IMG/VR virus record: IMGVR_UViG_3300030380_000587
Span: 1 to 52,962 of that record
DNA: 52,962 nucleotides
Source: a virus
Taxonomy: Duplodnaviria; Caudoviricetes
Strand: one strand, 5' to 3'
Part shown: piece after piece, positions 773 to 52,962 of the stretch
Position numbering within the stretch: the stretch's first letter is position 1
Layout of the letters: the number at the start of each line of letters is the position of its first letter
Made by a program: the position numbers and the translations under genes
The notes under the pieces: generated by a model
The model's database searches: none
What the model saw: only the letters and a program-made list of their open reading frames with translations
What the model was told of the DNA's origin: nothing

Positions 773-795
773 AGTGTTTAAACCTCCTTAAGTTT

Positions 796-981: not shown

Positions 982-1002
982 AACGTTTAAACCTCCTTTA
1001 GT

Positions 1003-1146: not shown

Positions 1147-1162
1147 CATGTTTAAACCTCCT

Positions 1163-1656: not shown

Positions 1657-1800
1657 TTTTAAATGCTCTCTATTGAACGTTTAGCAAGTAGTTAAGGGCA
1701 TAACATCAGATAGACAAACAAGCCCTTAAAACGGCTCTAATTAGCTTGAATGATTAAGGGGTAAAGTTTAAACGCTTTGCAAGTGTGAGAAATTCAAGAC

Positions 1801-1832
1801 AAAAAAAAGCCCCAATTAAGGGGCTAATTTTT
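1801..1832 (-). terminator. Rho-independent terminator after the SprT-like gene
   Basis: Minus strand AGCCCC-TTAATT-GGGGCT followed by a T run. Confidence 0.85.
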
Positions 1833-1841
1833 AGAGAGAGT

Positions 1842-2444
1842 TTAAACAATCTCTAGGGTATCACTTCCGCAACCATTACAAATTGTGTTAGTCATTCTGG
1901 CTATCATGGTCTTTGATGCTCTCCAACCAAACCCACAAGATGAACACTCCATTTTTATATTTCTGGTGCTTTGTTTCTTCTTGTTAGCTGTTGAAACTTC
2001 CGCATGGGGATAGTCTCCCAACTCTGAAACAATTTGCTCTAGTTTCTTTTTTAGTTCATCTCCAGCAACTGTTGCAGTCATTTTCCCAGTTAAGCCAATC
2101 TTAACCGCCATATCTTTAAATGGTTTTTTATGCCCATTCTTGCAGTCATCAACAGCGTGAATCATCTCATGGCTTAAAACGTCAAGAGCTTGAATAGAAT
2201 CACTAACAACGGGGCTAATGAATATTTCATTTACTCCAGCTTCTGAGCTGTTGCGATTATGACATACGCCTATTGCTTGATTTTTTGAGCCACTTCTTCC
2301 GCCACTTGCGGGAAATCCACAACTCACTTTTATATCTGTTGGAACTTCAATATCTACTGGTTCAAATACTTGTTTTACAAGCTTTGCCATTCCATCAACA
2401 AGCCACTCTTCACGGGTTCTAGTTTTATTTTCTAATAGTTTCAT
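1842..2444 (-). CDS. SprT-like zinc metalloprotease with C-terminal zinc ribbon
   Basis: HEMIH (HExxH) followed by GH..PF; C-terminal CSSC...CNGC. Start placed at 2444 because of the GGAG SD at 2454-2457 (ORF track start is 2477). Confidence 0.75.
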   Translation of the reverse strand: MKLLENKTRTREEWLVDGMAKLVKQVFEPVDIEVPTDIKVSCGFPASGGRSGSKNQAIGVCHNRNSSEAGVNEIFISPVVSDSIQALDVLSHEMIHAVDDCKNGHKKPFKDMAVKIGLTGKMTATVAGDELKKKLEQIVSELGDYPHAEVSTANKKKQSTRNIKMECSSCGFGWRASKTMIARMTNTICNGCGSDTLEIV

Positions 2445-2593
2445 GTTTATATACTCCTTTTGATTATTGTTAAACATAAGAGTATTTTAACCCGAAAAGC
2501 AGTTTAAACACAACCCCCAAAATGAAAAAACTTTAATTTATTTTTAGGGGTGGTTTTACCACGCTTTGCAAGTTGAAAAGTTTGAAATATAAA

Positions 2594-2697: not shown

Positions 2698-2976
2698 CTT
2701 GAAAAGTAGCCCGTAAATCTTGCCACGCTTTGCAAGTGTATCAAGTTTAAACGTTGTAGCTATAAGCTTTGAGGGGTAGGCAGAGTGCCATAGGGGGTGG
2801 GTGGCATATATACTAAATCTCATACATTTCTAGCCAGTTTTAGACGTTAACCAGATGACCGCCTAACCGTCAAACCACTTTCCAATCGTGCAAAGATTCA
2901 TATATTTTTTGACAAGCTTGTAAAGTAGTTTTATGGGGTATTATACTGGTATGTAACGGGGGGTATCGTTACACTC

Positions 2977-3005
2977 ATTATACATCTCAGAACACCTTTT
3001 GTCAA
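2977..3005 (-). promoter_or_regulatory. sigma70 promoter, leftward
   Basis: TTGACA-17 nt-TATAAT on the minus strand. Confidence 0.85.
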
Positions 3006-3042: not shown

Positions 3043-3071
3043 TTGACAAACTGGTAAATGGCGTATATAAT
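3043..3071 (+). promoter_or_regulatory. sigma70 promoter, rightward (packaging/structural arm)
   Basis: TTGACA(3043)-17 nt-TATAAT(3066). Confidence 0.85.
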
Positions 3072-39662: not shown

Positions 39663-40073
39663 ACAAACATAAAAGCATTTGGACAATTCAGTCCGTTCTC
39701 AGTCGGGTTTGATGACATCTTTAATACATTACAAAGAGCATCAATACCTAATACAAACTATCCACCTTACAATATTCTTAAAAAAGGTGAATCATATTTT
39801 ATTGAAATGGCAATGGCAGGGTTTAAACGTTCTGACATTGATATTGAAGTAAAAGATAATACATTAACTATCTCTGCAGACTACGAAAAGAGAGAGGATG
39901 ATATAGAATTTATTCATAAAGGAATTTCTGAACGAGAGTTCTATAAAAAATTTGCTCTAGCTGAATACGTAGAAGTAAAGAAAGCTCAGATGATTGATGG
40001 TGTCTTGGTTATTCAACTGGAAAAAGACATACCAGAGGAACAAAAGCCAAAAAAAATCAAAGTTTCTAGCTAA
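39660..40073 (+). CDS. Small heat shock protein (Hsp20, IbpA-like)
   Basis: VGFD, NYPPYNI, IEMAMAGF, HKGISER.F...F.L, DGVLVI.L. Confidence 0.95.
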   Translation: MTNIKAFGQFSPFSVGFDDIFNTLQRASIPNTNYPPYNILKKGESYFIEMAMAGFKRSDIDIEVKDNTLTISADYEKREDDIEFIHKGISEREFYKKFALAEYVEVKKAQMIDGVLVIQLEKDIPEEQKPKKIKVSS

Positions 40074-40410: not shown

Positions 40411-41386
40411 TTACTGTCCTTAAATTTGCAAAGTTAATTAAGTCTTGTTTTCCTCTGAGTCCAGCCTTCATGTAAGTAGTAGCTCTACCTTCAAAGAAGT
40501 TCTGATGCTCAACACCCATCACTTCATCTATCCAACCAAGAGGATTTTCTCTTTGGTCATAATTAGTTTTTAATCCTAGCTGTAGTAATCTTCTATCAGC
40601 TATGTATCTATTATATGCATACATATCTTTCTTGGTCAATCCTTGTAAGTCTCCCATCTCAAATACTAAATCAAGAAACTTATCTTCCAGCGTTACCATC
40701 TCTCTACATATTTCATACAACTCTTTTTTAAAATCATCTGTCCATATGTCAATGTTCTCTTGTATGAACTCTCTAAATAATTTAGTCATGGCTTCAACAT
40801 GCATTGACTCATCACGAATAGAGTAAGTTACAATCTGTCCCATACCTTTCATCTTTCCGAATCTTGGAAAGTTTAACAAGATTGCAAAGCTACTAAATAA
40901 TTGTAGTCCTTCTGTAAATGCAGAATAAACTGCTAATGTTTTTGCAATAGTTCTCTTATCATTCTTACGTGGTTTAAACGTTCCCACATAGTCATGCTTG
41001 TCTGCCATCTCTTCATACTCTGAGAATGCTTTATATTCTAACTCAGGCATTCCAACTGTGTCAAGTAATAAACTGTAGGCATCTTGATGGATTGATTCCA
41101 TGTTAGCAAAAGAACTCATCATCATTCTTGCTTCTGGTTTTTTAAAGATGGGCATATATTTATCTATATATCCACTCGCTACATCGACATCTGACTGAGT
41201 AAATAATCTAAAGATTTGAGTCAATAGATTTTTTTCTGTTGGTGAAATGTCCTGCCAATCTTTTACATCTGTATGTAATGGTACAGATTCTGGCATCCAA
41301 TGCATTTGATTTTGTAGTTTGTAGTAATCGTACATCCACGGATACTCAAACGGTTTATAGTAATCTCTTGTTGATAGTAAGCTCAT
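40403..41386 (-). CDS. nrdB: Ribonucleotide reductase class I beta subunit
   Basis: FTQSD, MESIHQDAY, FTEG, IRDESMH diiron ligands and radical Tyr; NFFE...Y tail. Confidence 0.95.
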   Translation of the reverse strand: MSLLSTRDYYKPFEYPWMYDYYKLQNQMHWMPESVPLHTDVKDWQDISPTEKNLLTQIFRLFTQSDVDVASGYIDKYMPIFKKPEARMMMSSFANMESIHQDAYSLLLDTVGMPELEYKAFSEYEEMADKHDYVGTFKPRKNDKRTIAKTLAVYSAFTEGLQLFSSFAILLNFPRFGKMKGMGQIVTYSIRDESMHVEAMTKLFREFIQENIDIWTDDFKKELYEICREMVTLEDKFLDLVFEMGDLQGLTKKDMYAYNRYIADRRLLQLGLKTNYDQRENPLGWIDEVMGVEHQNFFEGRATTYMKAGLRGKQDLINFANLRTVNE

Positions 41387-41395
41387 TAGTTCTCC

Positions 41396-43291
41396 TTAAC
41401 CTTCACAGGCAATACATCCCTCATCATCTAATTTAATACGAGGAATTTTTATGTTAACATTCTCTACGTTTCTAGCTGCATTAGACCTAAAGTAATATAG
41501 CGATTTAAGTTTATGCATTCCATACCAATGAACATCATTTACATACTGCATATATTCATCATGTACTTCTTGGCTATCCGTAGTCTTAGGTAGTGTAAAA
41601 AATAAATTTACACTTTGACTTTGACAAATAAATTCTTGTCTCATATGTGCATGTTCGACAATCCATATTTGATTTATTTCATTTGCGGTTTTGAATAGTT
41701 CTTTTTCTTTCTCATCTAGTATCTCTAGCTGTTGAACTGAACCATCATTACCTGATATATCTTTCCAAACTTCTTCAAGTTCTTTACCTTTCAATCCTTT
41801 AGACTTTAAAAGTTTATCTAAGTATTTGTTCTTAACTTGGTAAGTACCTGACAAAGTTTTGTGCGTATATGCATTAGCCCTATAAGGCTCAATACTAGGG
41901 GAAGTCCCACTACAAATAATACCGGAAGAAGCGTTAGGAGCAATAGCAAGTAGATTAGCATTTCTAAGCCCTGAACCATGTATATCAGGAGCTTCACCCC
42001 TTTCTTCTGCCAAGTATTGAGAAGCTTTTGTCGCTTCTCTTTTGATGTGACTAAAGGCTTTATGATTAAAGCCAGTTGCGAATATACCTTCAAAAGGTAT
42101 TCCTTTAGATTGAAGATAAGCGTGGAAGCCCATTGCCCCAAGACCAAGAGACCTTTCCCTATACGCTGAGTAAGCTGACTTGGTATAACCTTCCTTATCT
42201 TCTTTAATATATTTTGAAAAACGTTTGAAGTTTGCACTATATTCTCCGAGTTGTGATGTGTCTACAGCATTATCAATATAATGTTGTAAGACGTTATCGA
42301 GCATTGTAATTAAATCATTAATGAACTCATCATTCTTTGACCACTTATCAAAGTGTTCTAAGTTGACAGAAGATAAACAACAAACTGCTGTACGTTCTTC
42401 GTTAGTAGGTAAGGTAATCTCTGAACATAAATTACTTTGCCTTATGTTTAGTCCTAAATCTTTCTGTGATTTTGGTAAAGCTTCGTTACACGTATCAATG
42501 TTAATCATGTATGGCTCACCTGTTTCAGCTCTAGCAAAAAGTATTTGCCACCATAAGTCTCTAGCATTGACCGTCTTAACAGCTTCGTTAGTCTTAGGGT
42601 CTATCAGTCTCCAGTCTTCATCGTTCTCTACAGCTTCTAAGAATGCATTGGTAATGTTTATTCCATTGTGAAGGTTTAAACACTTCCTATTAATATCACC
42701 ACCTGACTCTCTTCTAATATTTATAAACTCTTCAATCTCTGGATGGCTAATGTCCATGTATGCTGCATAACTTCCACGTCTTGTAGTGCCTTGATTAAAG
42801 GCTAACATCTGTGAATCTACGACATGCATAAAGGGGATTGACCCAGTAGAACGAGAACCGTGAGTAGTAGAAATACCATTACTACGCACATCTCCCCAAT
42901 ATCCACCGATGCCTCCACCCGAACTTGCCAACCAAATGTTCTCATCGTAATGAGCAGATAAACCAACCCTGCTGTCAGGAACATAATTAAGGAAGCAACT
43001 GATAGGAAGCCCACGAGTTGTACCTCCGTTGCTAAGTATAGGAGTACTGAACATAAACCAACAATCGGAGCTGTAGTTATAAAGTCTCTGAGCCAATTCA
43101 TAATCTGTTTCTCCTTTATATGTTGCTGCAAATACTGAAGCTCTAGCAAAAGCTTCTTGAGCATGGGTTTCATTATCCCAAAAGTATCTGTCTTTGAGTG
43201 TATCTAAACTAAACTTATCAAACTTTTTTTCTTTATCATAATCTATACATATACCGAGGTAAGGTTTCTTGCCTATCTTATCTTCCATCAT
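41396..43291 (-). CDS. nrdA: Ribonucleotide reductase class I alpha subunit (no ATP cone)
   Basis: STP.LSN, PISCF, SNLCSEI, VCCLSS, APNASS, SLYY, C-terminal CIAC. Confidence 0.95.
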   Translation of the reverse strand: MMEDKIGKKPYLGICIDYDKEKKFDKFSLDTLKDRYFWDNETHAQEAFARASVFAATYKGETDYELAQRLYNYSSDCWFMFSTPILSNGGTTRGLPISCFLNYVPDSRVGLSAHYDENIWLASSGGGIGGYWGDVRSNGISTTHGSRSTGSIPFMHVVDSQMLAFNQGTTRRGSYAAYMDISHPEIEEFINIRRESGGDINRKCLNLHNGINITNAFLEAVENDEDWRLIDPKTNEAVKTVNARDLWWQILFARAETGEPYMINIDTCNEALPKSQKDLGLNIRQSNLCSEITLPTNEERTAVCCLSSVNLEHFDKWSKNDEFINDLITMLDNVLQHYIDNAVDTSQLGEYSANFKRFSKYIKEDKEGYTKSAYSAYRERSLGLGAMGFHAYLQSKGIPFEGIFATGFNHKAFSHIKREATKASQYLAEERGEAPDIHGSGLRNANLLAIAPNASSGIICSGTSPSIEPYRANAYTHKTLSGTYQVKNKYLDKLLKSKGLKGKELEEVWKDISGNDGSVQQLEILDEKEKELFKTANEINQIWIVEHAHMRQEFICQSQSVNLFFTLPKTTDSQEVHDEYMQYVNDVHWYGMHKLKSLYYFRSNAARNVENVNIKIPRIKLDDEGCIACEG

Positions 43292-43565
43292 CTTGTTTTC
43301 CTGTTAAATATAAGGCTATTATAGCATAGTGAATAATCTTTAGCAAGTCATTTGGATTCTTACCATTCTTCTTTCCATACCTCATAGCGTATTTCATAAT
43401 GTTACCAATACAGAAACCTTCACCGTGTCCAGCATCAAGTATCATATCTGTCGCTTGATATTTACCTCTAGCATAATGTTCAGTATATGTTGAATCAATA
43501 TGAGATTTAATTGTTTCTAAAATTTTATCCTCTGTAAATTTGTAATCTCTTTTCTTCATACCCAT
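43278..43565 (-). CDS. DUF3310-like (gp1.7-like) protein
   Basis: HY...GFCIGNIMKY..R.GKK....DL.K...Y pattern. Confidence 0.65.
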   Translation of the reverse strand: MGMKKRDYKFTEDKILETIKSHIDSTYTEHYARGKYQATDMILDAGHGEGFCIGNIMKYAMRYGKKNGKNPNDLLKIIHYAIIALYLTGKQDDGR

Positions 43566-43978
43566 TCCTCTGGTAAGTTATCTTCTCCATACCATGTAAA
43601 GTTATTTGTCTCTGCCCATTCTGCATGAGTTCTTTTTGTACCATCTTTTCTTTTCTTAGCTTGTGGCATAGGTGAGTAAGGTTTCTGAAATAAAAATACT
43701 AACTCATAATTTTTAGGTAATGCCTCTCGTATATGTATGTACTTACTATACTCTGCATAGTCCCAAAATCTACCTTTAGCTTCTAACAAAATTGTTTTAC
43801 CATTGAACTCTTTAACAAAGTCTGGTTCGTATCTATGCTTCACTACATAGTCAATCATCTCACTATGATGCTGCCATTTACTTAAAACATTTTCGTGTAA
43901 GCTAACCTCCCACAAACTATCATAGCCTTTAGGTACGTTAATCTTTTTAGGTCTTGGCTTTCTTGGTTTTCTAGCCAC
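43556..43978 (-). CDS. T7 endonuclease I-like Holliday junction resolvase
   Basis: YDS.WE, YEPDF, LEAKG.F, T.AEWAE..F motifs. Confidence 0.85.
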   Translation of the reverse strand: MARKPRKPRPKKINVPKGYDSLWEVSLHENVLSKWQHHSEMIDYVVKHRYEPDFVKEFNGKTILLEAKGRFWDYAEYSKYIHIREALPKNYELVFLFQKPYSPMPQAKKRKDGTKRTHAEWAETNNFTWYGEDNLPEEWV

Positions 43979-44222
43979 GTAATAATTCCTCTAATGTAAT
44001 ATCAGGATTACGTTTTATTTTTTTATTAAACCATCGTAAGCTATAAGCACTTAATAAAATTCTACCCATACCATAGACGTGTGTTTGCTCTGGTAAAAAC
44101 TCATGTAAGTTTTTTTTGTTAATCTTAGAAGTGTCTTCACTATCAGGGGTCATAGTTCTCAACCATTCAATTAACATGTTCTCTGCTTTACGTCTTAATC
44201 TTTTAGCTTTCTTGCCATTCAT
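43971..44222 (-). CDS. Hypothetical protein
   Basis: 83 aa, MNGKKAKRLRR N-terminus. Confidence 0.7.
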   Translation of the reverse strand: MNGKKAKRLRRKAENMLIEWLRTMTPDSEDTSKINKKNLHEFLPEQTHVYGMGRILLSAYSLRWFNKKIKRNPDITLEELLRG

Positions 44223-45024
44223 AATTCTTTACCAGTTGCCAATACTTTAATATACTGTTGAACATATCTCTATGTTTCTCGTGGGATTCTTTATCCCATA
44301 TATGACATAAGACTAAGCTTGTATCCTCTCTATCTACAAAGATAGAAACCCTCTCTGGATTATCTATATTGCATCCTTGAGCATACGCAGATAGTTGCAT
44401 ACCGTGGTCATCATAAACTAATTTAGCAGGTTCTTTACCATCTAAGTTGTCTTTAGTTTTAAAGTCAACGAATATACCTGACTTAGAATATAAGTCTATC
44501 TTACCACCATATCCTTGTTTTGCACAGAAGGAATCTTCTGCTATCCACTCTTCATCTGGAAAGTTTTCATCCAACCATGATTGAATTATTTCGTAAGGCT
44601 TAGACGTACCTAGCCCTAAGAAACCTTGTTCAATCTTAGCATGAATCTCTGTACCTTTCTTCGCTGCGTTTAAACCTATCTCTTTAGAATGTTGTTTACA
44701 TCTGAAAGCAAACCCCTCTAAGGATTCGTCATCTTGCTTTTCTAAAGTAAGTGCAGAGTTTAAGGCTTGATTTATTTTCCAGTTTTCTAAGGATGGTTTA
44801 GCTACCATACCTAGAATCGTAGTGACTGAAGGTACTAATCCTAGAGACCTAGCATCTCGTAGATTGGTATTTCTTTCTTTACCATTAGCACCTATGATTG
44901 TGTACATAGGTTCTCCATCTTTGGAGTACCAATGACCAGCTTCCGATTTATATTTAGAAGCTGCTAGTTTATTATATACTTCCTGAGAAGAACTGTCAAT
45001 AGTTTTTTTATTTTTCTTTGTCAT
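44203..45024 (-). CDS. PD-(D/E)xK exonuclease
   Basis: PSVTTIL, GTEIH, GKID, VDFKT, QLSAY motifs. Confidence 0.85.
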   Translation of the reverse strand: MTKKNKKTIDSSSQEVYNKLAASKYKSEAGHWYSKDGEPMYTIIGANGKERNTNLRDARSLGLVPSVTTILGMVAKPSLENWKINQALNSALTLEKQDDESLEGFAFRCKQHSKEIGLNAAKKGTEIHAKIEQGFLGLGTSKPYEIIQSWLDENFPDEEWIAEDSFCAKQGYGGKIDLYSKSGIFVDFKTKDNLDGKEPAKLVYDDHGMQLSAYAQGCNIDNPERVSIFVDREDTSLVLCHIWDKESHEKHRDMFNSILKYWQLVKNYEWQES

Positions 45025-45430
45025 TTTCTGACTCCTTGAATGCTTTGATTACATCACTAGAAAATAATTTCTGTAAATTAACTAAGAACATTTTACTTGC
45101 GTTGTTATCTCCACCCGATACTGTTTTAAAATAATCTAATTTATCTACAATAGTTTTCAATACATCTGTTTTAAAAACTAAAGTACAAAATTCATTATCG
45201 CCAACACATAGATTATGAAACCAGTAATCAGATTCTGTTGTTCTTATTCCTGATGGTTTGTTCCAGCATTCATATTCAACACAGATGTTTCCTGTCTTCA
45301 TCCACATACCACGTTCTGACTTGACTTCTATCTTTTTATTAGTTAGCATATCTACAATCTTTTCTTCACGGATTGTACCATACTGTAAGTCTATGTCAAA
45401 TTTCTTTCTGTCTTCTTTAATGGGTTTCAC
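45008..45430 (-). CDS. Conserved phage protein, possible PD-(D/E)xK fold
   Basis: FDIDL.YG...E, IEVK, TGNI.VE, KPSGI..T.SDYW. Confidence 0.6.
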   Translation of the reverse strand: MKPIKEDRKKFDIDLQYGTIREEKIVDMLTNKKIEVKSERGMWMKTGNICVEYECWNKPSGIRTTESDYWFHNLCVGDNEFCTLVFKTDVLKTIVDKLDYFKTVSGGDNNASKMFLVNLQKLFSSDVIKAFKESENDKEK

Positions 45431-47147
45431 TCCAATTCCCTCCTATTTTATATTCGCCATCTAAAGGACAGCGAAGGTTAAAACTTTCTCCAGCTTTGAT
45501 AATACTATCAACAGCAAGAGAGCCTGTAAATTCTGCTTGACTTTCTTTAACTTCTATTTGCCATTCATCATGTATGTTAGCAACAAACTTATAATCAATA
45601 GTGTTTAAACGTAACATTAAATCTAAATCAACAAGAGCTTTCTTCATAACAATAGAACCTGCTCCCTGTAATAATGTATTCAATGCCGAGTGTTGATTTC
45701 TAACATATAACTTTCTACCATCTATTCCTTTGAGGTAAGTTTTTGTAGATGCTCTTTGTACTCTATCTCTAAGAGATTTAAATGAAGGCTTATTATCGAA
45801 GAAATGTTGTCTAGCTCTTCGACCATCTGCCTTACTTCCTCCAACCACACTTCCAAGCTTTTCATCTCCTGCTCCGTACATGAGTGCATAGATGAATGTT
45901 TTTGCCTTATCTCTAGATTCAAGCTGTGCAAGTCTTTGATTGGCGGTGTGAATGTCTCCGTTAATGATTTCATTTATAAACTCCTCGTCAGCCATATAGT
46001 GTGCTAACATTCTTATTTCTAGTCCACTAGCATCTACTCCTAGTAAAACATTACCTTCTTCTACAGTCCAACATGCTCTGCATTCCTTACCGAAAGGGCT
46101 AGATACACTTGGTACTTGTGCCATGTTAGGATTACGATGAGTCATACGACCTGTTATCGTACCGTTAGGTATGACAAACCCATGTACTCTTCCATCATCT
46201 GTGACTGCTTCAAACCATGAATCAATCTGTGCAATTCTTTTCTGTAGTAATAAAAAGTCTGCAATCAATTTAGCTTCATGTATGTGCGTTATCTTTGATA
46301 ATGTTTTCTCATCTACAATAGGCTGACCTGTTGGTGTAAATCTATCTGGCTTCCACCCAAAATCAATTAGGTATTCTCCAATCTGTTTACGACTACCAAG
46401 ATTAAACTCTTGTAAAGTCTTACGCATGAATGGATTATAGTTGGAAGTGTTTAAACAGTTTGTATATTCTTCATCCGTGAGTCCACGTTTAGAAAGTTGT
46501 CCATCCTTTTTAATGTATGGAGTAACTAACTTACTATCTACCCACTTAGGTTTAAACGTCTTCTGTACCTCATCCTCAATGGCTTGTTTCTTTTCTCTTA
46601 ACTCTGCTAACAAAAGTTCAGCGTGTAAGATGTCAAACTTAAATCCATTTGTCTCTTGCTGCTTTATGATACGAGCTACACCTTGTTCTAACTCGATGGA
46701 ATCTTTTGAGAATCCTTTACTTTCTTTTCTTAGTTCTTTGAAGACTTGAGTATTAAGTTGTACATCTCTTACACAATAGTCTAGCATTTCTTGAGAGTAA
46801 TTTAAATAATCATTGAAGTCAATCTTGTTGAATCCTAATTTGTATCCCCAATTTTCTAAGCTATGTCCACCCTCTCTAGTTGGGTTGAATAGTCTGGATA
46901 AAACTAGCGTATCTATTACAGGTATCTTTGATAAATCTACATCACTAAACTTATGTATCATAGGTATATCAAATCCAATAATGTTATGACCAATTAAAGT
47001 ATCAGCAGTAGCTAAGAACTCATAACCTTTTTGTAATTCATCTGGTGTAAACTTAAATATCTGACCAGTTAAAGGGTCTTGAGCTACAATACACCACACC
47101 TTCGTGGCGTTTAAATCATCTGTCTCTATGTCAAATACTAAATCCAT
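45417..47147 (-). CDS. Family A DNA polymerase (T7 gp5-like) with 3'-5' exonuclease
   Basis: FDIETD, GHNIIGFD, YCVRD; motif A DASGLE, motif B KTFIYALMYG, motif C HDE. Confidence 0.95.
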   Translation of the reverse strand: MDLVFDIETDDLNATKVWCIVAQDPLTGQIFKFTPDELQKGYEFLATADTLIGHNIIGFDIPMIHKFSDVDLSKIPVIDTLVLSRLFNPTREGGHSLENWGYKLGFNKIDFNDYLNYSQEMLDYCVRDVQLNTQVFKELRKESKGFSKDSIELEQGVARIIKQQETNGFKFDILHAELLLAELREKKQAIEDEVQKTFKPKWVDSKLVTPYIKKDGQLSKRGLTDEEYTNCLNTSNYNPFMRKTLQEFNLGSRKQIGEYLIDFGWKPDRFTPTGQPIVDEKTLSKITHIHEAKLIADFLLLQKRIAQIDSWFEAVTDDGRVHGFVIPNGTITGRMTHRNPNMAQVPSVSSPFGKECRACWTVEEGNVLLGVDASGLEIRMLAHYMADEEFINEIINGDIHTANQRLAQLESRDKAKTFIYALMYGAGDEKLGSVVGGSKADGRRARQHFFDNKPSFKSLRDRVQRASTKTYLKGIDGRKLYVRNQHSALNTLLQGAGSIVMKKALVDLDLMLRLNTIDYKFVANIHDEWQIEVKESQAEFTGSLAVDSIIKAGESFNLRCPLDGEYKIGGNWSETH

Positions 47148-47149
47148 AA

Positions 47150-48811
47150 TTAAAATGCTTCGTCTGAATCATCATCAAACATTATATCATCATTACTAAC
47201 TTCAGTCAATCTTCCTGTATCATTATCATACATAACACTACAAGCCATTCCAACATCTCCTGTGTATCTTGATTTTAATATACGCATCCTTGTTGTTCTC
47301 GCTTCTTCTGCATCGTCTGACTGTTGATTACGTTCCAATGCTATCACACAATCACTTAATTGTCCAATACTATTTGAACCTCTAAGATGAGAGAGTGATA
47401 CCTCAATACCATTCTCATGTCCTTTGTTACCATCTACTCTACGTAAGTGGGAAACTAAAATAATACCAGCACCTGTTTCTTCTACTAAGCTTCTAAGTCT
47501 TGTCATAATAGAATCAATGGCACGTCTCTCATCTCCTTCATGCACCGCACTAACTAACATATGTAAATGGTCTACCACTACCCACTTACAATCACATCCG
47601 ATAATCATAAATCTTAGTTTGGTAAAGATGTCATCGATGTCGTTAGTTCCAAAATGAGAATGTACCCATACTCTGTTCTTGTTGTCCCCATCATACAAGA
47701 TGTCAAACATCTTATCTAATTCTTCAACAGAAAACTTCTCTCGTTCTTGGTCAATGTAAAGTCTGGCGTTAGCTTCGATAGATAAGATACCATCGATAGT
47801 TCTTCTCCAGTCCTCTTCAAGTGCTATGATACCAACGTTATCCTTTGTCTCTTTGATAAGCCAATGCTCTAGTTCTCTAGTAACACTTGACTTACCTAGT
47901 CCTGTACCACCTGTAAGAGTTACAAGTTCTCCTTGTCTGAGTCCATATAGTTTCTTATTCAATCCTTTGTAAGGATAAGGAACACTTTGCTTCTTCTCTC
48001 TGTTGTGGAACTTATCTCGCTGCTCTGAGACATTGATAACACCAGATGGGGTATAGACTTTAGCTGCCCACCATGATTCAACAAACTCTTTATGCTTGTT
48101 ATTTTTAAGCATATCGTTAGGGTCTTTGTACCCATTGGGGAGTGTAACTATCTTAGCCTTACTAGGTTTAAACAGCCTCGCTACCTTTACTGCTGCTTCC
48201 TTCCCTGCCTTGTCATTATCAAATGCAATGATTACATTTTCAAATTCATCAAAGAACTCTAGGCTTTCTTTAACATCACGTACAGCTCCTTGAGCACCAC
48301 GTTTGATGGATACTACAGCCCATTTACTTCCTAGCAATTCGTAAGCTGCCATAGCATCACACTCCCCTTCCGTTATCGTGACATACTTGCCACTCTTGAA
48401 GAGTTGTTGTCCGAACAATCCTGTTTCATTATAAGTACCAGCTACGAAGAAGTCTTTAGTCTTCACGTGCCGACACTTAGTACCTGCTAGTTCATGTCCG
48501 TTGTAGTAAGGGTAAAAGTGTTTGATGACATTACCTTGATGGTCATGTGCTACCTTTACTCCATACTTAGTAGCAGTAGGCTGAGAGATTTTTCTGTCAG
48601 ACAAAGCTGCAAATATTCCCTCATCTACTACGTCAGGTTTTTTAGTTTCAGTTTGAAATTCCATATCTTTTCCCTCACATGATTTATTATAGTCAGGCAT
48701 AAACTCCCCGCAACTGAAACACTTTGCTGAACCATCTTCGTTGATTCCGACAGCATCACTACTATCACAAAGCGGACAAGGTTGATGAACTTTATCCCAA
48801 GTTTTTTCCAT
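47150..48811 (-). CDS. Primase-helicase (T7 gp4-like)
   Basis: CPLC/CFSC zinc finger, TOPRIM EGE.D and FDND, GGTGLGKS, VDHL, LRGS. Confidence 0.95.
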   Translation of the reverse strand: MEKTWDKVHQPCPLCDSSDAVGINEDGSAKCFSCGEFMPDYNKSCEGKDMEFQTETKKPDVVDEGIFAALSDRKISQPTATKYGVKVAHDHQGNVIKHFYPYYNGHELAGTKCRHVKTKDFFVAGTYNETGLFGQQLFKSGKYVTITEGECDAMAAYELLGSKWAVVSIKRGAQGAVRDVKESLEFFDEFENVIIAFDNDKAGKEAAVKVARLFKPSKAKIVTLPNGYKDPNDMLKNNKHKEFVESWWAAKVYTPSGVINVSEQRDKFHNREKKQSVPYPYKGLNKKLYGLRQGELVTLTGGTGLGKSSVTRELEHWLIKETKDNVGIIALEEDWRRTIDGILSIEANARLYIDQEREKFSVEELDKMFDILYDGDNKNRVWVHSHFGTNDIDDIFTKLRFMIIGCDCKWVVVDHLHMLVSAVHEGDERRAIDSIMTRLRSLVEETGAGIILVSHLRRVDGNKGHENGIEVSLSHLRGSNSIGQLSDCVIALERNQQSDDAEEARTTRMRILKSRYTGDVGMACSVMYDNDTGRLTEVSNDDIMFDDDSDEAF

Positions 48812-48828
48812 GTTAGCCCTCCGACTGT

Positions 48829-49095
48829 TTAAACGTTATCTGTTGATTCTTCTTCTATAGTTTCTGCATCCTCAACAGGCTCATCATTTTCTACCATAGC
48901 TTCAGGAGTTTCTTTTAAAAGATTCTCCAGATTACTTCTATGAGTAGAACTAGCAAACTGTAAAGCCTCTATAATAGTTTCTAAACTTCCTACCTTTGAG
49001 ATAGTTACAGTTGCTCCACGTTTCTTATCCTCATCTGCTATTTTATTAACATCGTATTGAATTTCCCCGTCATCATTTTTAATATTGATAATCAT
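48829..49095 (-). CDS. Hypothetical protein
   Basis: 88 aa; its stop lies within a GTTTAAAC. Confidence 0.75.
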   Translation of the reverse strand: MIINIKNDDGEIQYDVNKIADEDKKRGATVTISKVGSLETIIEALQFASSTHRSNLENLLKETPEAMVENDEPVEDAETIEEESTDNV

Positions 49096-49097
49096 AA

Positions 49098-49517
49098 TTA
49101 AAATTCCTCGTTATCAGAGTCTCCCTCTGAATCATATTCTACTAAGTTAAGAACTTTTACAGCCATAAGTTCTGCAAACGTCCCGTAATTTCCTGTATAA
49201 GGCTTTATCTTAACCCTTACAGTTGAGCCATTTCCAACAGCAACATCAAGCGGATTACCTTCTCCATCTAATAACTTAGGTGCAGCGTTAGGCGTACCAT
49301 CTTTTCTGTTGGCATGTCTACTAAAAGAGAATGCAGGTTCATCATACTTGAGTTGACCATCTCTGGTTCTCACTTGTTTTAAACCTAGACCCTCTAGTCT
49401 ATTAGCAGTATCCTCATCTGTAAGCACAACGATTTGATACTTATGTGGTTCAAATCTCCTGTTAGGTGTGCTGACATTAGCATACATACTCTTTCCATCT
49501 AAATACTCATACTCCAT
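49098..49517 (-). CDS. Single-stranded DNA-binding protein (gp2.5-like)
   Basis: VGNGS.V, L.AV.V..LVEY, acidic tail ending in F; upstream of the primase. Confidence 0.8.
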   Translation of the reverse strand: MEYEYLDGKSMYANVSTPNRRFEPHKYQIVVLTDEDTANRLEGLGLKQVRTRDGQLKYDEPAFSFSRHANRKDGTPNAAPKLLDGEGNPLDVAVGNGSTVRVKIKPYTGNYGTFAELMAVKVLNLVEYDSEGDSDNEEF

Positions 49518-49552
49518 AGTTTTATCCTCCGTAGGTTGTATTAAGTGTTGCC

Positions 49553-49581
49553 ATTATATCATACTTTGGCTTTGAGTTCAA
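49553..49581 (-). promoter_or_regulatory. sigma70 promoter for the replication operon
   Basis: TTGAAC-17 nt-TATAAT with extended -10 TG. Confidence 0.75.
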
Positions 49582-49607
49582 TAGTTTTTTGAAATTAATT
49601 TGAGATT

Positions 49608-49825
49608 GTTTAAACGGGTGGCAGTACTTGGTGTAGTTCTTATCCTGCTTCATCCACAACCTTTCACAAACCTGATTGATAAGGGGAAAGGATTTTACGG
49701 TGGCTCTAGCACCACGTTTAAACGTTTCAAAAGGAGCTGGTTTTAAGGGCACAAGACCAGAAACTTGCACGACTGAATCGAATACCATAGGTTTAAAAGG
49801 AAATTTATGAGGGCTATTCCTATGA
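49608..49825. ncRNA. Candidate structured non-coding RNA
   Basis: GC-richer intergenic tract with five consecutive predicted stems; strand uncertain. Confidence 0.4.
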
Positions 49826-50020
49826 TACGCCACGAACATTCTCATCATTGTATTTAAAAAATTCATCCCAACAAAAACTAACATCTTTAAGAAAAGAAAT
49901 CTTAAAAAAATCATCAATGTGCTCAACCATATAACCAAACTGATTTGGCTGTGAGCTGATGAAGTTTTGAAAGTTTCTATACTCATCCCTCGTTAATGTC
50001 CTTGTCTTGTTGTCAATCAT
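49820..50020 (-). CDS. Hypothetical protein, probably leaderless
   Basis: ATG 50020 follows TATAAT by 7 nt; the ORF-track start 50029 lies within the -10 box. Confidence 0.65.
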   Translation of the reverse strand: MIDNKTRTLTRDEYRNFQNFISSQPNQFGYMVEHIDDFFKISFLKDVSFCWDEFFKYNDENVRGVS

Positions 50021-50027
50021 GTCAGGC

Positions 50028-50056
50028 ATTATAACATATCTCCTTTGTAAAGTCCA
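50028..50056 (-). promoter_or_regulatory. sigma70 promoter
   Basis: TGGACT-17 nt-TATAAT with extended -10 TG. Confidence 0.65.
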
Positions 50057-50063
50057 GCGTTAT

Positions 50064-50261
50064 TTAAAAATATTTATTTAAAACTTCTAGCTTATCGTTG
50101 TAATCTGATATAGCTTGTAGCTCTTCTTCAATAGTCTTCAATAAGTCTGGATGTTCTGGAACTCCTACCGCTTTGTCTAGCATTATGTTTACGTTCATAA
50201 TGTGCCAACCAATCAAGCCTTCTAAATTATTTTTTAGTGCTTGTATAATCTCTTCTCTCAT
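50064..50261 (-). CDS. Conserved small phage protein
   Basis: 65 aa; H..N......VGV.EHPD....IE.EL.......DKLE.L.KYF family. Confidence 0.8.
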   Translation of the reverse strand: MREEIIQALKNNLEGLIGWHIMNVNIMLDKAVGVPEHPDLLKTIEEELQAISDYNDKLEVLNKYF

Positions 50262-50262
50262 A

Positions 50263-50562
50263 CTACCCTCCTAAGAATAGTTTTAAAATACCGCTAAACA
50301 ATATCACTACTGCTACCGCATTTAAAATAATTAATGCTCTGTCTTTCCACAGAACCCCTACCCACAACCAACCTAAACATCCTACAAAGGATAGTAATAA
50401 ATCAAACTGTGGTAAAACTTGTGCACCTCTAAACGACATTGCTACTAACATGATGGCTGATGCTGACCATTTAACATACCAAGATAAATCATACTTAGGT
50501 GTTGCTGATTTAAATATTCTTTTAGAATTTTCTAATTCTTTTTTAGAAAAGTTTTGTGTCAT
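50263..50562 (-). CDS. Small 3-TM membrane protein
   Basis: WYVKW..S, GWLWVG.LW.DRALI.LN; start 50562 from an ATGA overlap. Confidence 0.75.
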   Translation of the reverse strand: MTQNFSKKELENSKRIFKSATPKYDLSWYVKWSASAIMLVAMSFRGAQVLPQFDLLLSFVGCLGWLWVGVLWKDRALIILNAVAVVILFSGILKLFLGG

Positions 50563-50693
50563 ACCATATACCTTGTATCTATGATATAGCAATCTTGTTT
50601 AAACGTTCTGTCGCAAATACTAAAAGCTACGATAAAACAAGCCAACATAAAAAACAAATAAATAAAATCTCTTCCATTAAATTGTGGTGTCAT
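50559..50693 (-). CDS. 44-aa membrane peptide (not in ORF track)
   Basis: MTPQFNGRDFIYLFFMLACFIVAFSICDRTFKQDCYIIDTRYMV; ATGA overlaps at both ends. Confidence 0.65.
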   Translation of the reverse strand: MTPQFNGRDFIYLFFMLACFIVAFSICDRTFKQDCYIIDTRYMV

Positions 50694-50962
50694 GCTCCAC
50701 CTCTGCAATATAAATCTATTAATTCTTGACCTGTCTTTTCTTCTCCAAAAGTATGTATTGTCTCTCCATATTTTTTTCTAACAATCAATCCATTATTGTA
50801 TTCTATGTCCATAACCTTACCAACCTCAGTATCCCAAGGTCTATCATCATACCACATAGATTTTAAGCTGTGAATATGTACCGCTTTAGGAACTTTTGCC
50901 CACTCTTCTGCTTCAAGTAGCAACCTTTGTTGACTAACCCTATCATCATGCTCTGTCATCAT
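50690..50962 (-). CDS. Hypothetical protein
   Basis: 90 aa, GGAGG SD. Confidence 0.75.
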   Translation of the reverse strand: MMTEHDDRVSQQRLLLEAEEWAKVPKAVHIHSLKSMWYDDRPWDTEVGKVMDIEYNNGLIVRKKYGETIHTFGEEKTGQELIDLYCRGGA

Positions 50963-51080
50963 AGTCCTCCTCTCCTAACACATCCTCACTATACTCATTT
51001 GTATCTACTATCGGTGCATTATTGTAGTAATCATCTACAACATCATCAATATTTATAATTCTTTTTGTATCATCACTCAT
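50946..51080 (-). CDS. 44-aa highly acidic protein (not in ORF track)
   Basis: MSDDTKRIINIDDVVDDYYNNAPIVDTNEYSEDVLGEEDYDDRA; AAGGA SD; first ORF after the promoter at 51165-51193. Confidence 0.65.
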   Translation of the reverse strand: MSDDTKRIINIDDVVDDYYNNAPIVDTNEYSEDVLGEEDYDDRA

Positions 51081-51164
51081 ATTTATATCCTTTTTAAAAT
51101 ATTTTAATTATTTAATTTATTAATTATTATAATTATTTGTTTGATACCTTAAAAAATTTAAAAG

Positions 51165-51193
51165 ATTATAACATTTTTTATAAGGTAAGTCAA
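51165..51193 (-). promoter_or_regulatory. sigma70 promoter
   Basis: TTGACT-17 nt-TATAAT with extended -10 TG, within a very AT-rich gap. Confidence 0.8.
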
Positions 51194-51219
51194 ACACTTT
51201 GTTAATTAATTGAGTCTGT

Positions 51220-51459
51220 TTAAACATACTCTACTACTGGTTCTATTTGAAATGCCCAACACCAATGACCATTATCTAAGTCAAGGATTTGATTACGTTC
51301 TTGTATATGCCACCAATCAATCTCCTCTACTGGAATACCTTCTTTACTTCCGTTAGAATAGTTTAGCTGGATTCCTGTTACCATTACCTTTCTAGGTTCT
51401 TCCATACCAAAGCTACCTCTCCATAGAACATCATCTCCTATTCTTAATGTATCACTCAT
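51220..51459 (-). CDS. Hypothetical protein
   Basis: 79 aa, GGAGG SD; stop lies inside a GTTTAAAC. Confidence 0.8.
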   Translation of the reverse strand: MSDTLRIGDDVLWRGSFGMEEPRKVMVTGIQLNYSNGSKEGIPVEEIDWWHIQERNQILDLDNGHWCWAFQIEPVVEYV

Positions 51460-51670
51460 TGTCTTCCTCCTTGTTATCTTTAACTAATTGTAGTGTTGGT
51501 TTATCTTTTATTTCAAAGTCTGGTGTAAATGTTATCAAAGGTTCGATAGGTTGTCCATTCATATCCCAAGTATCTATAATTAATTCATCTGTTGAATCAT
51601 CAATGTAGATTATCTTACCTGTTGATGTTGTTATGTAAGCTACGTTGTCTGCTTTTACTTCTATAATCAT
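51452..51670 (-). CDS. Hypothetical protein
   Basis: Likely start MIIEVK at 51670 (GGAGG SD, ATGA overlap). Confidence 0.7.
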   Translation of the reverse strand: MIIEVKADNVAYITTSTGKIIYIDDSTDELIIDTWDMNGQPIEPLITFTPDFEIKDKPTLQLVKDNKEEDNE

Positions 51671-52158
51671 GCTACCTCCCTTGTCCACCAGTCTGGTCTG
51701 GCTCTGCCTTTCTCCCACTTAGCGTAATGCTTCTCATTGATACAGTAATCTCTGTACGCTTTAATAGGGTTATCGTTCTTGTATTCATCTGGCATAGCTT
51801 GTGCAAGTGGTGTCATACTTTTTTTAGTAATGTTTGGTATCTTTTTTAAAGGTTCTTTTAGTTTAGTTATACTTGCATGTTCTCTCCCATATCTAAACTT
51901 ATACTCGCTACCTAAAGCTAGGAAGTGTACATACAACCAAAGATAATTTAATCTAGATTCTCTTGCCCATACAGTACATGGATGATTCCAGTATGCTCGT
52001 TTGTAAAGTCCTACACTATCTGCATATTCATCTCCATCTATTTCTCTATGTGCTGTGCATAACATCTGTGCTGTTTCCAATGGCATTTTTACCAACATCT
52101 TATCAGGTTGTGCTATTGCACACTCTATTGGGCTATCATCAAAATAAAATATATTCAT
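51667..52158 (-). CDS. Pyrimidine-dimer DNA glycosylase (DenV-like) family protein
   Basis: MNIF..D..P...A....DK..VKM.LE.AQML, HPCTVWAR, EY..RYG..H, AYR.Y. Confidence 0.7.
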   Translation of the reverse strand: MNIFYFDDSPIECAIAQPDKMLVKMPLETAQMLCTAHREIDGDEYADSVGLYKRAYWNHPCTVWARESRLNYLWLYVHFLALGSEYKFRYGREHASITKLKEPLKKIPNITKKSMTPLAQAMPDEYKNDNPIKAYRDYCINEKHYAKWEKGRARPDWWTREVA

Positions 52159-52168
52159 AGTTCCTCCT

Positions 52169-52486
52169 TTATTTTATCCAACATTTATATCCTGTGCATT
52201 TGTCAAGTGTATCTCCACAATGCTCACAATAATCTTCATCTTGTTTAAACATATCCTGTTGATATTCATTAGCCATATCATCTAACTCTTTAGAAGATAA
52301 GCCACCTGTTGCATGATGAGATAGAAACTTTATCAGTAAAGTCGTATCATCATCATTGCTTTGATTATCATACATGAACTCGCAACAGTCGTCAAACAAA
52401 TCAGGTCTGTCATGTATCTGCCAGAGTCTGTTTAAACGTTCTCGTATCTGATACATTTGCTCCGTTTTAATTAAGTCATTATCCAT
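52169..52486 (-). CDS. Hypothetical protein with C-terminal Cys cluster
   Basis: Likely start MDNDLIK (GGAGG SD); CEHC.....C....C at the C-terminus. Confidence 0.7.
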   Translation of the reverse strand: MDNDLIKTEQMYQIRERLNRLWQIHDRPDLFDDCCEFMYDNQSNDDDTTLLIKFLSHHATGGLSSKELDDMANEYQQDMFKQDEDYCEHCGDTLDKCTGYKCWIK

Positions 52487-52736
52487 TAAGTCCCTCCACA
52501 AAATCCCAACCATCTGTTAATATATTTTCTTTGTCTGCCCATTTATAATCTGGGTCGCCAATATCTCCATCATGTTCTGCTGTGCTACCATCTTTATATG
52601 TAATGTAAAGCGTTCCATATTTGATATAGTAATCGTCTACCTCATTAAAGTCAACTCCTAATTCTTCTAAATCAAAAGTAATTGGTGCTTGATAGATACA
52701 CTCAATGTATCTTGGTTTGTCGCTATCTACGTTCAT
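52479..52736 (-). CDS. Small acidic early protein
   Basis: 85 aa, preceded by GGAGGTTTAAAC; YYIKYGTLYI...DG motif. Confidence 0.8.
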   Translation of the reverse strand: MNVDSDKPRYIECIYQAPITFDLEELGVDFNEVDDYYIKYGTLYITYKDGSTAEHDGDIGDPDYKWADKENILTDGWDFVEGLNG

Positions 52737-52753
52737 ACTGTTTAAACCTCCTC
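52661..52753. repeat. Copy 2 of left flank (matches 1-93)
   Basis: Direct comparison; one mismatch. Confidence 0.95.
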
Positions 52754-52888
52754 AAATTTATCTTCATAAAAATACACAACAGCTACAGTTCCTTTTGTCG
52801 CACTCTCATGTACACTAAAATCTACATCATAAAACTCATTGTCAAGCCTGTCAAGTAATTCTTGTTCACTCAATTTATCTTTGTCCAT
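52742..52888 (-). CDS. 48-aa acidic early protein (cassette allele B; not in ORF track)
   Basis: MDKDKLSEQELLDRLDNEFYDVDFSVHESATKGTVAVVYFYEDKFEEV; bounded by repeats at 52740 and 52892. Confidence 0.8.
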   Translation of the reverse strand: MDKDKLSEQELLDRLDNEFYDVDFSVHESATKGTVAVVYFYEDKFEEV

Positions 52889-52962
52889 AACGTTTAAACC
52901 TCCCCTTCTAAATCTTTTATTAATTCTTCTGCATCATCTTCATCATAAGACTTTTGCTCTAT
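52882..52962. repeat. Copy 2 of right flank (matches 297-377)
   Basis: 81-bp exact match; encodes the C-terminus of the 309-533 gene. Confidence 0.95.

Follow-up and report, generated by a model that had tools for sequence, protein, structure and literature searches.

A palindromic word selected in the early arm of a marine podophage genome and the SprT-like gene that accompanies it

The early arm and its palindrome

The stretch of DNA analysed here (the window) is the whole of IMG/VR record IMGVR_UViG_3300030380_000587, which spans 52,962 nucleotides (nt) and represents a marine podophage of ~52.7 kb. Its leftward early arm is studded with an 8-nt palindrome, GTTTAAAC, and the first protein-coding gene of that arm (1842..2477, minus strand) encodes a SprT-like protein of 211 amino acids. 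We find that the word is maintained by selection and that its presence among relatives of the window follows the presence of this gene. Comparative sequence evidence leads us to read the sites, as the most likely explanation, as a binding array for the encoded protein.

The two arms of the genome start from divergent, perfect-consensus promoters that lie ~37 bp apart. The leftward sigma-70 promoter (2977..3005, minus strand; TTGACA-17-TATAAT) starts the early arm, and its rightward counterpart (3043..3071, plus strand) starts the structural arm. Each matches the consensus at 12 of 12 positions, and both arms thus start from host-type promoters of maximal strength. The early arm begins with a repeat-rich, non-coding leader of ~500 bp, continues through small early genes, wraps around the contig end, and runs down to ~40195 through the replication genes. 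These code for a gp2.5-like single-stranded DNA-binding protein, a primase/helicase, a family-A DNA polymerase, an exonuclease, an endonuclease, and ribonucleotide reductase. The structural arm carries packaging, head, tail, fibre, and lysis genes together with an Hsp20 gene. Pelagibacter phages HTVC115P and HTVC103P are distant relatives, with ~66% nucleotide identity over half of the replication genes. Among the 64 open reading frames (ORFs) of the window that were scanned, no phage RNA polymerase, sigma factor, methyltransferase, integrase, or repressor was found, and the window scans revealed no recognisable temporal regulator besides the two host-type promoters.

The leader (2480-2975, minus-strand sense) contains three TTGTACAAAATTTATACAG-like dyads, three to four CTTGCAAAGCG repeats, and C-rich tracts. 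A further CTTGCAAAGCG repeat lies near 1775, and the leader is conserved in the related contig L014. It could be a replication origin, an iteron set, or a structured leader, and an Rfam search of the whole window, leader included, gave no match. An intrinsic terminator, composed of a hairpin and a T-run (1808..1825, minus strand), lies directly 3' of the SprT-like gene.

The original prediction for this DNA estimated about 31 copies of the palindrome, and an exact search finds 31 at the same positions. Because the contig ends overlap (52740 duplicates 80, and 52892 duplicates 307), 29 of these are unique. The polarised distribution that had been described also holds, with 11 copies in 1-2760, 16 in 40972-52899, and four at 9005, 25095, 38938, and 39821. 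The rough expectation of two copies agrees with Markov models of orders 1 to 4 (2.0-3.0 copies; 6.6 at order 5). Dinucleotide shuffles yield a mean of 1.76 copies and a maximum of 7, and none of 100 reaches 31. No other 8-mer of the window deviates as strongly (z 22.7), those ranked behind it being sub-words of the palindrome (z 7.6), and the enrichment of the word over the expected count is ~10-20-fold. The early arm holds 25 unique sites in 15,617 bp (1.37 expected; ~1.6-2 per kb) versus four in the 37,043 bp of the late arm (1.62 expected), and the domain ends at the divergent promoter switch (~2977-3071). Over 11 motif-rich contigs, the corresponding figures are 94 sites in 45.4 kb on the early side versus three in 54.3 kb on the late side.

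Nine copies take the form GGAGGTTTAAAC, all on the minus strand, in which the palindrome follows the Shine-Dalgarno (SD) sequence and a start codon comes 1-3 nt further on. Loss of the enrichment on their removal had been named as the outcome that would refute the original prediction; the enrichment survives (22 copies remain versus ~3 expected). When codons are shuffled synonymously, the 13 internal sites of the minus arm compare with 2.08 expected and are reached in none of 1000 shuffles; the four of the plus arm compare with 0.69 and are reached in 4 of 1000. Peptide positions that could carry a site do so in 13 of 21 cases on the minus arm and in 4 of 9 on the plus arm. Words with one mismatch are depleted in the early arm (7 versus 19.2 expected), whereas the late arm has 26 versus 31. 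Within genes, copies are found in each of the two open registers, xGT-TTA-AAC and xxG-TTT-AAA-C, and another three act as stop codons, so the constraint acts on nucleotides rather than on peptides. Sites in 11 related loci comprise 16 at translation starts, 43 within genes, 8 that are stop codons only, and 16 between genes. Selection maintains the word in the early arm of these phages; short palindromes are normally purged from phage genomes.

A restriction-modification or methylation target might be suspected, given an 8-bp palindrome with a dimer-type footprint that is also the PmeI site. However, restriction targets are generally avoided in phages, and this word is enriched ~10-fold. Neither a methyltransferase nor a restriction-type nuclease was found among the 64 ORFs scanned, and the gene that co-varies with the word has a protease fold. 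We find this explanation hardly credible.

The sites occupy several kinds of positions. In the leader, a site at 2745..2752 adjoins a CTTGCAAAGCG repeat. The next, at 2502..2509, lies in an operator-like position 24 nt upstream of the ATG of the SprT-like gene; the earlier proposal that it overlies a -35 element does not stand, as the only nearby promoter-like match starts at 2490. The TAA of the site at 1840..1847 is the stop codon of the SprT-like gene, and an intergenic site downstream of the terminator (1766..1773) adjoins another CTTGCAAAGCG repeat. The GGAGGTTTAAAC junctions of the small-gene region then occupy the SD-ATG spacers of gene 1163-1426 (1428..1435), ORF 1003-1149 (1150..1157), gene 796-981 (985..992), gene 539-772 (776..783), gene 309-533 (537..544), and gene 82-303 (307..314), with one more at 80..87. 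In several of these, the internal TAA doubles as the stop codon of the upstream gene: that of 537..544 ends gene 539-772, that of 307..314 ends gene 309-533, and that of 80..87 ends gene 82-303 ahead of the SD spacer of the next gene.

At the other end of the contig, 52892..52899 and 52740..52747 are the terminal-overlap duplicates of the 307 and 80 junctions, and the latter is both the stop of ORF 52742-52888 and the SD spacer of gene 52479-52736. The overlap is imperfect. Positions 1-93 correspond to 52661-52753 and positions 292-377 to 52877-52962, with 98-99% identity in both blocks, whereas the small gene between them differs (94-291 versus 52754-52876). Both edges of the swap fall at GGAGGTTTAAAC junctions, and the swapped piece is either a natural cassette variant or the product of a two-strain assembly.

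Further along the early arm, gene 52169-52513 has two intragenic sites, 52430..52437 (CGT-TTA-AAC; R-L-N) and 52243..52250 (ATG-TTT-AAA-C; M-F-K), as does gene 49522-49986, at 49716..49723 (T-F-K-R; the fully palindromic ACGTTTAAACGT) and 49608..49615 (P-F-K-Q). Between these genes, the TAA of 51218..51225 is the stop of gene 51220-51459, and 50597..50604 lies just upstream of the start of gene 50263-50592, within the small ORF 50559-50708. Shortly before the primase SD, gene 48829-49095 ends in the TAA of the site at 48827..48834, so all three stop-codon copies noted earlier (1840, 48827, and 51218) are confirmed as such. The primase/helicase gene (47150-48811) carries a site at 48166..48173 (L-F-K-P). 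In the DNA polymerase gene, the site at 46550..46557 (T-F-K-P) uses a rare ACG codon and is conserved in motif-rich relatives, that at 46449..46456 reads C-L-N-T where motif-poor relatives have C-L-D-T, and that at 45603..45610 reads R-L-N where they mostly have K-L-N. The last sites of the arm lie in the exonuclease-like gene 44203-45024 (44668..44675; G-L-N) and in the genes for the large (42674..42681; C-L-N) and small (40972..40979; T-F-K-P) subunits of ribonucleotide reductase. On the late arm, the Hsp20-like gene (plus strand) contains 39821..39828, which is separated from the early arm by little more than the convergent junction. Near the same junction, 38938..38945 lies in the plus-strand gene 37835-39568, whose homologue in L014 also has sites. 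The two isolated sites are in a structural-arm gene (25095..25102; gene 23368-26199) and in the portal gene (9005..9012; gene 7342-9546).

Symmetric flanks extend the palindrome to an ~18-bp dyad, R-N3-Y-GTTTAAAC-R-N3-Y. Among unique intragenic sites pooled from motif-rich relatives, purines (R) are preferred at -5 (40/41) and +1 (30/41) and pyrimidines (Y) at -1 (35/41) and +5 (34/41), and the -5, -1, and +5 preferences hold in each reading frame against a codon-position-matched background. In 148 unique sites, no further conserved position was found out to +/-45 nt, and nothing beyond +/-6 nt. Mirrored flank positions are no more complementary than the column marginals predict, and we thus see no sign of hairpin selection. 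Some intergenic sites in contigs L092 and L097 resemble extended inverted repeats, and a hairpin or cruciform reading was rejected on the same measure of complementarity. The flank pattern would be expected of a symmetric dimer that reads ~18 bp of duplex DNA, and a symmetric dyad in duplex DNA argues against RNA-level, Chi-like, and promoter readings.

According to the RNA-level reading, the word would be a signal in early transcripts, such as a nuclease target of the RegB type, a translational-coupling element, or a -1 frameshift site. It can draw on the nine copies between SD and ATG, on the internal TAA that ends the upstream gene, and on UUUAAAC, a known slippery heptamer. However, the flanks are symmetric, three registers are used, and only six intragenic sites are in the slippery register. 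Sites also occur in the plus-strand genes by the junction (38938 and 39821) and in the non-coding leader, and Rfam gave no match in the window. We give an RNA-level role almost no credence.

The original prediction proposed a protein-binding site on early-expressed DNA, with a Chi-like recombination signal as one version of it. The first part is supported by the symmetric flanks, selection in all frames, sharp polarity, and a co-varying phage gene. The second is not, because neither the palindromic core nor its symmetric flanks have an orientation. What that account missed were the partner gene, the motif-free relatives, and the same protein family with related words in unrelated phages.

A SprT-like gene co-occurs with the word

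The word is an all-or-none trait among relatives of the window. Of 80 contigs recovered by their DNA polymerase (77-93% identity), 10 have GTTTAAAC as their highest-ranking 8-mer, and the rest have it at background density (39 sites in ~579 kb). HTVC115P has one to two copies and HTVC103P has none, and the SprT-like gene is present in neither. Orthologous genes of motif-rich pairs share 13/16, 3/6, 4/7, 4/5, 5/8, and 2/7 sites, compared with conservation rates of 0.40-0.10 for control 8-mers. In pairs of one rich and one poor genome whose nucleotide identity is as high or higher, the shared sites number 0/5, 0/7, 0/7, 0/4, and 0/6. The three polymerase sites lie at fixed codons and are made through the rare ACG codon in T-F-K-P and the changes of C-L-D-T to C-L-N-T and K-L-N to R-L-N. 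On a quick polymerase tree, the trait requires five changes, at least four of which are forced by well-supported branches. A model in which each lineage has its own palindrome was rejected: ATTTAAAT, TAAATTTA, TAATATTA, and others fail Bonferroni correction in the polymerase-anchored relatives, and ATTTAAAT became significant only later, in a contig set defined by the SprT-like protein family.

Clustering of ORFs over all contigs pointed to the 1842-2477 gene. We used the first late-arm gene, which is common to both states, as an anchor and compared the 25 contigs whose early side extends over 1.5 kb or more. The SprT-like gene is present in each of the 11 that are motif-rich, and the 14 contigs that lack it have zero early-side sites (Fisher 2e-7, in a test that ignores phylogeny). 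With the window included, the gene is present in 12 of 12 rich and 0 of 14 poor genomes, and no other gene cluster associates perfectly. Conversely, seven low-GC contigs fetched by the SprT-like protein are all motif-rich on the early side only (60 sites in 24.7 kb versus 2 in 39.4 kb). The junction cassette, searched for in the whole viral collection, has multi-copy matches only in the phage group of the window (6 of 32 loci), and the four of those six that reach the start of the early arm (L103, L105, L109, and L120) all carry the gene. The SprT-like alleles are only 37-67% identical, yet they accompany the same word. Between the window and contig L134, for example, the SprT-like protein is 49% identical, the polymerase 93%, and the anchor gene 98%.

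Other candidates in the region were rejected. The small ORFs 2626-2823 and 2504-2626, considered as binders, are artefacts of repeated non-coding DNA, and the 87-amino-acid gene 1163-1426 also occurs in motif-poor contig L048. In 8 of 11 informative motif-poor contigs, the early-arm region of the SprT-like gene is filled by a GP88 gene (PF17338, of unknown function), which is never found in motif-rich genomes. Its carriers are L168 (904-1776), L144, L162, L165, L171, L173, L176, and L177. A second replacement gene in motif-poor genomes had no family match.

The SprT-like protein contains an HExxH motif (SHEMIHAV), whose residues H103, E104, and H107 are invariant in 60 sequences, and a C-terminal CxxC...CxxC zinc ribbon in which C178, C200, and C203 are conserved. 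It matches phrog_6361 (1.6e-40) and belongs to a family with 839 database hits and 164 cultured-phage records. Pfam PF10263 is precomputed on many homologues, and depositors call the cultured ones 'SprT-like protease'. The predicted structure (predicted local distance difference test score, pLDDT, 89.3) has a SprT/Spartan/Wss1-like zinc-metalloprotease fold. Its best match is the SprT domain of human Spartan (6mdx_A; Z 9.1, root-mean-square deviation 2.9, 96 residues aligned, 21% identity), followed by mini-zincins and Wss1 (5xbn_A; Z 7.3), and Foldseek finds 6mdw with an E value of 8.9e-3. Residues 170-211 model as a rubredoxin-like ribbon (Z 4.1). A PDB sequence search with the family profile returned nothing below E 0.26. 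HExxH and its neighbouring residues are invariant in 60 diverged sequences, which argues for retained enzymatic activity, and the protein is probably an active protease.

The protein is also predicted to homodimerise. The homodimer model scores 0.69 versus 0.00 for the best of three controls, with runs that have at least 60% of contacts in common and a partner pLDDT no lower than 78. Among proteins of solved structure, 20 of 30 pairs attained this mark, as did 1 of 23 single chains. The predicted interface is symmetric and includes the invariant residues R22, E23, and P89.

Words that track protein clades, and what the sites may do

A second set of 80 contigs, each encoding a member of the SprT-like family, was found with the family alignment. 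By word, 50 have GTTTAAAC, 6 have ATTTAAAT, 10 have GTTTACAC, and 14 have none of the three. Enrichment of GTTTAAAC reaches p<1e-3 in 44 contigs and p<0.01 in 6 more, and this set includes contigs of 41-66% GC with no homologue of the window-type polymerase, primase, or anchor within +/-10 kb. ATTTAAAT is significant at p<1e-3 in six contigs of ~52% GC and totals 30 versus 1.58 expected over the seven contigs of its clade (the six plus L233). In a 10-member clade of 63-72% GC, GTTTACAC is the most deviant 8-mer (65 versus ~2 expected). The flank rule common to all three words holds here too, with Y at -1 (40/40) and R at +1 (36/40). Of the 10 members, 9 have a GTTTACAC site 31-75 nt upstream of the gene and 7 have another just past its 3' end, and the orientation of the word is biased to the strand of the gene (51 versus 14). 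The words track the protein tree: the main clade has GTTTAAAC in 42 of its 46 members, and the ATTTAAAT and GTTTACAC clades have 100% and 99% support. Clades without any of the three TTTA-type words (L213, L098, and L217; L194, L195, L219, and L244) show other enriched 8-mers, namely AAGCCATG (15 versus 0.92), ACGTCCTA (12 versus 0.21), and GACGTTCC (15 versus 0.76), which may be further cognate words or unrelated repeats.

Cultured phages carry the arrays as well. The whole records of Arthrobacter phage Elezi and Microbacterium phage Zeta1847 have 23 and 22 copies of GTTTACAC, and that of Dinoroseobacter phage R5C (61% GC) has 17 copies of GTTTAAAC; the reversed control word has none in each. 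In a 28.7-kb stretch of R5C (L257; NC_041921.1), which also carries genes for queuosine/7-deazaguanine synthesis, all GTTTAAAC copies have C...G flanks and are often part of a longer GC-rich dyad, gcgCGTTTAAACGcgc. In Elezi (L254, 32991-34909) and Zeta1847 (L256, 18155-20579), a gene for a phage RNA polymerase sigma factor precedes the SprT-like gene by one to two genes, and within ~3 kb comes a gene for a serine integrase. Zeta1847 also has a ~30-bp repeat, TTGCGC-gagt-GTTTACAC-gcgtg-TATGAT, in either orientation (for example at 21925, 28927, 29759, 31604, and 32052). This repeat is a sigma-70-like promoter with the word in its spacer, an arrangement found at 6 of 17 sites in that phage.

Another reading makes the word part of promoters that a sigma factor, of the phage or of its host, would recognise. 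The neighbouring sigma-factor genes in Elezi and Zeta1847, the co-direction of GTTTACAC with genes, and the subset of Zeta1847 sites inside promoters would all fit. Against this, a -35/-10 arrangement (TTGnnn...TAnnnT) with a partner hexamer at fixed distance accompanies only 8 of 148 sites in the group of the window and none of the 51 high-GC-clade sites or the 23 Elezi sites. Most window sites are intragenic or lie 1-3 nt from a start codon, and no sigma factor was found in the window. A role as a promoter element is therefore very improbable.

It could also be argued that gene and sites merely hitch-hike, being co-inherited as an exchangeable early-arm module with no functional link. Early arms are indeed swapped relative to late arms, and homology breakpoints coincide with motif-bearing junctions in 11 of 40 cases versus 10.7% expected (p 0.003, in the small-gene region). 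That overlap is confounded with gene boundaries and amounts to 0 of 11 in the replication genes, and a role of the motif as a recombination junction was rejected. However, sites in replication genes occur only in gene-bearing genomes, and the polymerase tree interleaves rich and poor lineages. The same word and gene recur in the 41-66% GC contigs, where the polymerase, primase, and anchor of this group have no counterpart, and different words go with different protein clades. These family-wide results already largely refute hitch-hiking, and we see next to no chance that it is correct.

Another host or phage factor might bind the sites, and the SprT-like protease would then be coupled to it, for example by cleaving the bound factor, without reading the sequence itself. 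Spartan and Wss1, to which the fold was matched computationally, are understood to act on DNA-bound proteins without sequence specificity, and the conserved DNA-facing residues are constant between clades with different words. Yet the word tracks the protein clade across very different hosts and GC contents (32-72%), a pattern that a single host factor cannot explain, and no other early gene co-varies with the motif. We consider this model rather improbable.

Our preferred explanation is that the selected ~18-bp dyad sites are the cognate array of the SprT-like protein, that they tether and activate the protease, and that they also serve its autoregulation. We give this joint explanation a probability of roughly 0.55. 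Sites would be placed where they are cheapest: in SD-ATG spacers, at the TAA stops of upstream genes, at permissive Leu-Asn and Phe-Lys pairs, and occasionally at the price of an amino-acid change. The array would tether a DNA-dependent protease along the early arm and thereby activate it, and the site just upstream of the gene would let the protein regulate its own expression. Once tethered, the protease might act on proteins bound to the DNA, by cleavage or displacement, or might stand in the way of polymerases. That the protein itself reads the sites, its dimerisation, its protease activity, its action once bound, its substrate, and its benefit to the phage are points that we infer. A DNA-tethered, DNA-activated protease is favoured because the catalytic motif is invariant.

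The readings that invoke hitch-hiking, a host factor only, RNA, a promoter, Chi, or restriction each fail at least one direct test. The main alternative is a roadblock without proteolysis, in which the SprT-like protein binds the sites purely as a stoperator-like regulator and its protease fold is vestigial or used for self-processing only. The site upstream of the protein's own gene, the promoter-spacer sites of Zeta1847 (6 of 17), and the bias of the asymmetric GTTTACAC to the direction of transcription (51 versus 14, with further counts of 17 versus 6 and 16 versus 6) would suit a regulator. So would the fact that both arms of the window start from consensus host promoters with no other temporal regulator found. 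However, the catalytic HExxH and its neighbours are invariant in the 60 diverged sequences, and the promoter arrangement is seen at only 8 of 148 sites in the group of the window. We regard this alternative as unlikely.

Several observations weigh against the tethered-protease explanation. The window protein scores 25.5 bits with PF10263, just under the cut-off of 25.6, and the dimer exists as a model. The basic and zinc-ribbon residues K168, Q169, R172, and K175 are invariant across clades with different words. Spartan and Wss1 are eukaryotic repair proteases with no known sequence specificity or cognate site array. The Fisher test takes no account of shared ancestry, and early arms are exchanged as modules (the anchor protein of L160 is identical to those of motif-poor L162 and L166). 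Only 9 of the 15 low-GC copies of the gene are preceded by a site at a distance of 23-62 nt. Among the 14 of 80 family contigs with none of the three words, several are short; L190, L192, L194, L219, and L244 are not. The sites of Elezi, Zeta1847, and R5C are spread genome-wide, as opposed to the one-arm polarity in the group of the window, and E. coli phage ep3, whose homologue is 29% identical, has only four copies, one of them ~20 nt upstream of the gene.

A bolder possibility, which we put forward tentatively, is that a large family of phage SprT/Spartan-like proteases is sequence-addressed. The word read, 8-10 bp long, would differ from clade to clade (GTTTAAAC, ATTTAAAT, GTTTACAC, and perhaps more) and be present in tens of copies per phage genome. 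The protease, tethered to the phage DNA and activated there, would strip or cleave DNA-bound host proteins. If this is true, then host silencers, defence nucleases, or stalled polymerases could be the targets, and abundant marine podophages and soil actinophages would share an unrecognised principle of takeover or counter-defence.

Whatever its function, the palindrome has been driven up even where the polymerase gene had to take on rare codons or the protein altered residues, and a single gene predicts its presence or absence. Gene and word density together give a simple genomic marker for sorting mosaic relatives. In the accessible literature, the SprT-like proteins of this widespread phage family are annotated by fold only, with no function demonstrated for them, and the link between clade and word is the first concrete molecular handle on the family that can be tested. 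Cultured Elezi, Zeta1847, and R5C are open to such testing. HTVC103P-type pelagiphages are ranked by their describers, in the accessible part of their account, among the most abundant marine viral groups. Because the group of the window is related to these phages, the system may matter for the early programme of common ocean phages.

Two further features of the window were noted. The tail-fibre-like gene (1527 amino acids) has in-frame tandem repeats at 19511-19744 (5 x 39 nt) and 20523-20690 (2 x 84 nt). The early gene 51667-52158 (minus strand) matches the pyrimidine-dimer DNA glycosylase family (PF03013, E 6.7e-5; phrog_624, 1.2e-54) and occurs in motif-rich and motif-poor relatives alike.

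Comparison with known systems

The predicted protein resembles Spartan (SPRTN; 6MDX/6MDW) and Wss1 (5XBN) in that it combines the protease fold and HExxH motif (Z 9.1 and 7.3) with an added zinc-binding module predicted to face DNA. The idea that DNA might act as an activating scaffold is carried over from these proteins by analogy. Unlike for Spartan and Wss1, the evidence points to a specific 8-10 bp word for each protein clade.

Palindromes that are confined to part of a replicon and read by a dimeric, domain-acting protein are known from the matS/MatP, SBS/SlmA, NBS/Noc, and parS/ParB systems of bacterial chromosomes. The array described here is likewise confined to one genome domain (25 versus 4 sites in the window, and 94 versus 3 over 11 contigs). 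In contrast to those systems, the replicon is a phage genome and the proposed partner is unrelated in fold; the window scans gave no match to the MatP, SlmA/TetR, or ParB/Noc families.

Actinobacteriophages provide closer relatives of the protein itself. The 'SprT-like protease' of Cluster AZ Arthrobacter phages has been described by fold, and a role near lysogeny genes has been suggested (bioRxiv 10.1101/2025.05.26.655371; PMC12363180). As far as the accessible text of these papers goes, it is of the same family, with ~198-211 amino acids and a predicted C-terminal DNA-binding module. That text mentions no motif array tied to the gene, and one of the papers refers to 'repeat sequences (data not shown)'. 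More broadly, the accessible literature, supplementary files aside, holds no description of these words as phage motifs or of a SprT-linked site array. Our findings point to an undescribed protein-and-site system that is common to many phages.

The nearest described system, judging from the accessible text on it, is the stoperator array of Cluster A mycobacteriophages (PMC9283540). Stoperators are asymmetric 13-mer sites that are bound in these temperate phages by a monomeric helix-turn-helix immunity repressor, such as the L5 repressor. Both arrays have more than 20 copies of one short word in promoters, in short intergenic gaps, and within genes, and the stoperator binder is encoded by the phage, as we propose here. 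The GTTTACAC variant is also similar in its orientation bias relative to transcription. Unlike stoperators, the sites of the window are palindromic with dyad flanks, and the proposed partner has a zinc-protease fold and is a predicted dimer. The window array is also confined to one arm, and the scans gave no integrase or repressor match in the window and no repressor or helix-turn-helix family among the 29 minus-arm ORFs. The two systems thus differ in site symmetry, binder fold, stoichiometry, and lifestyle.

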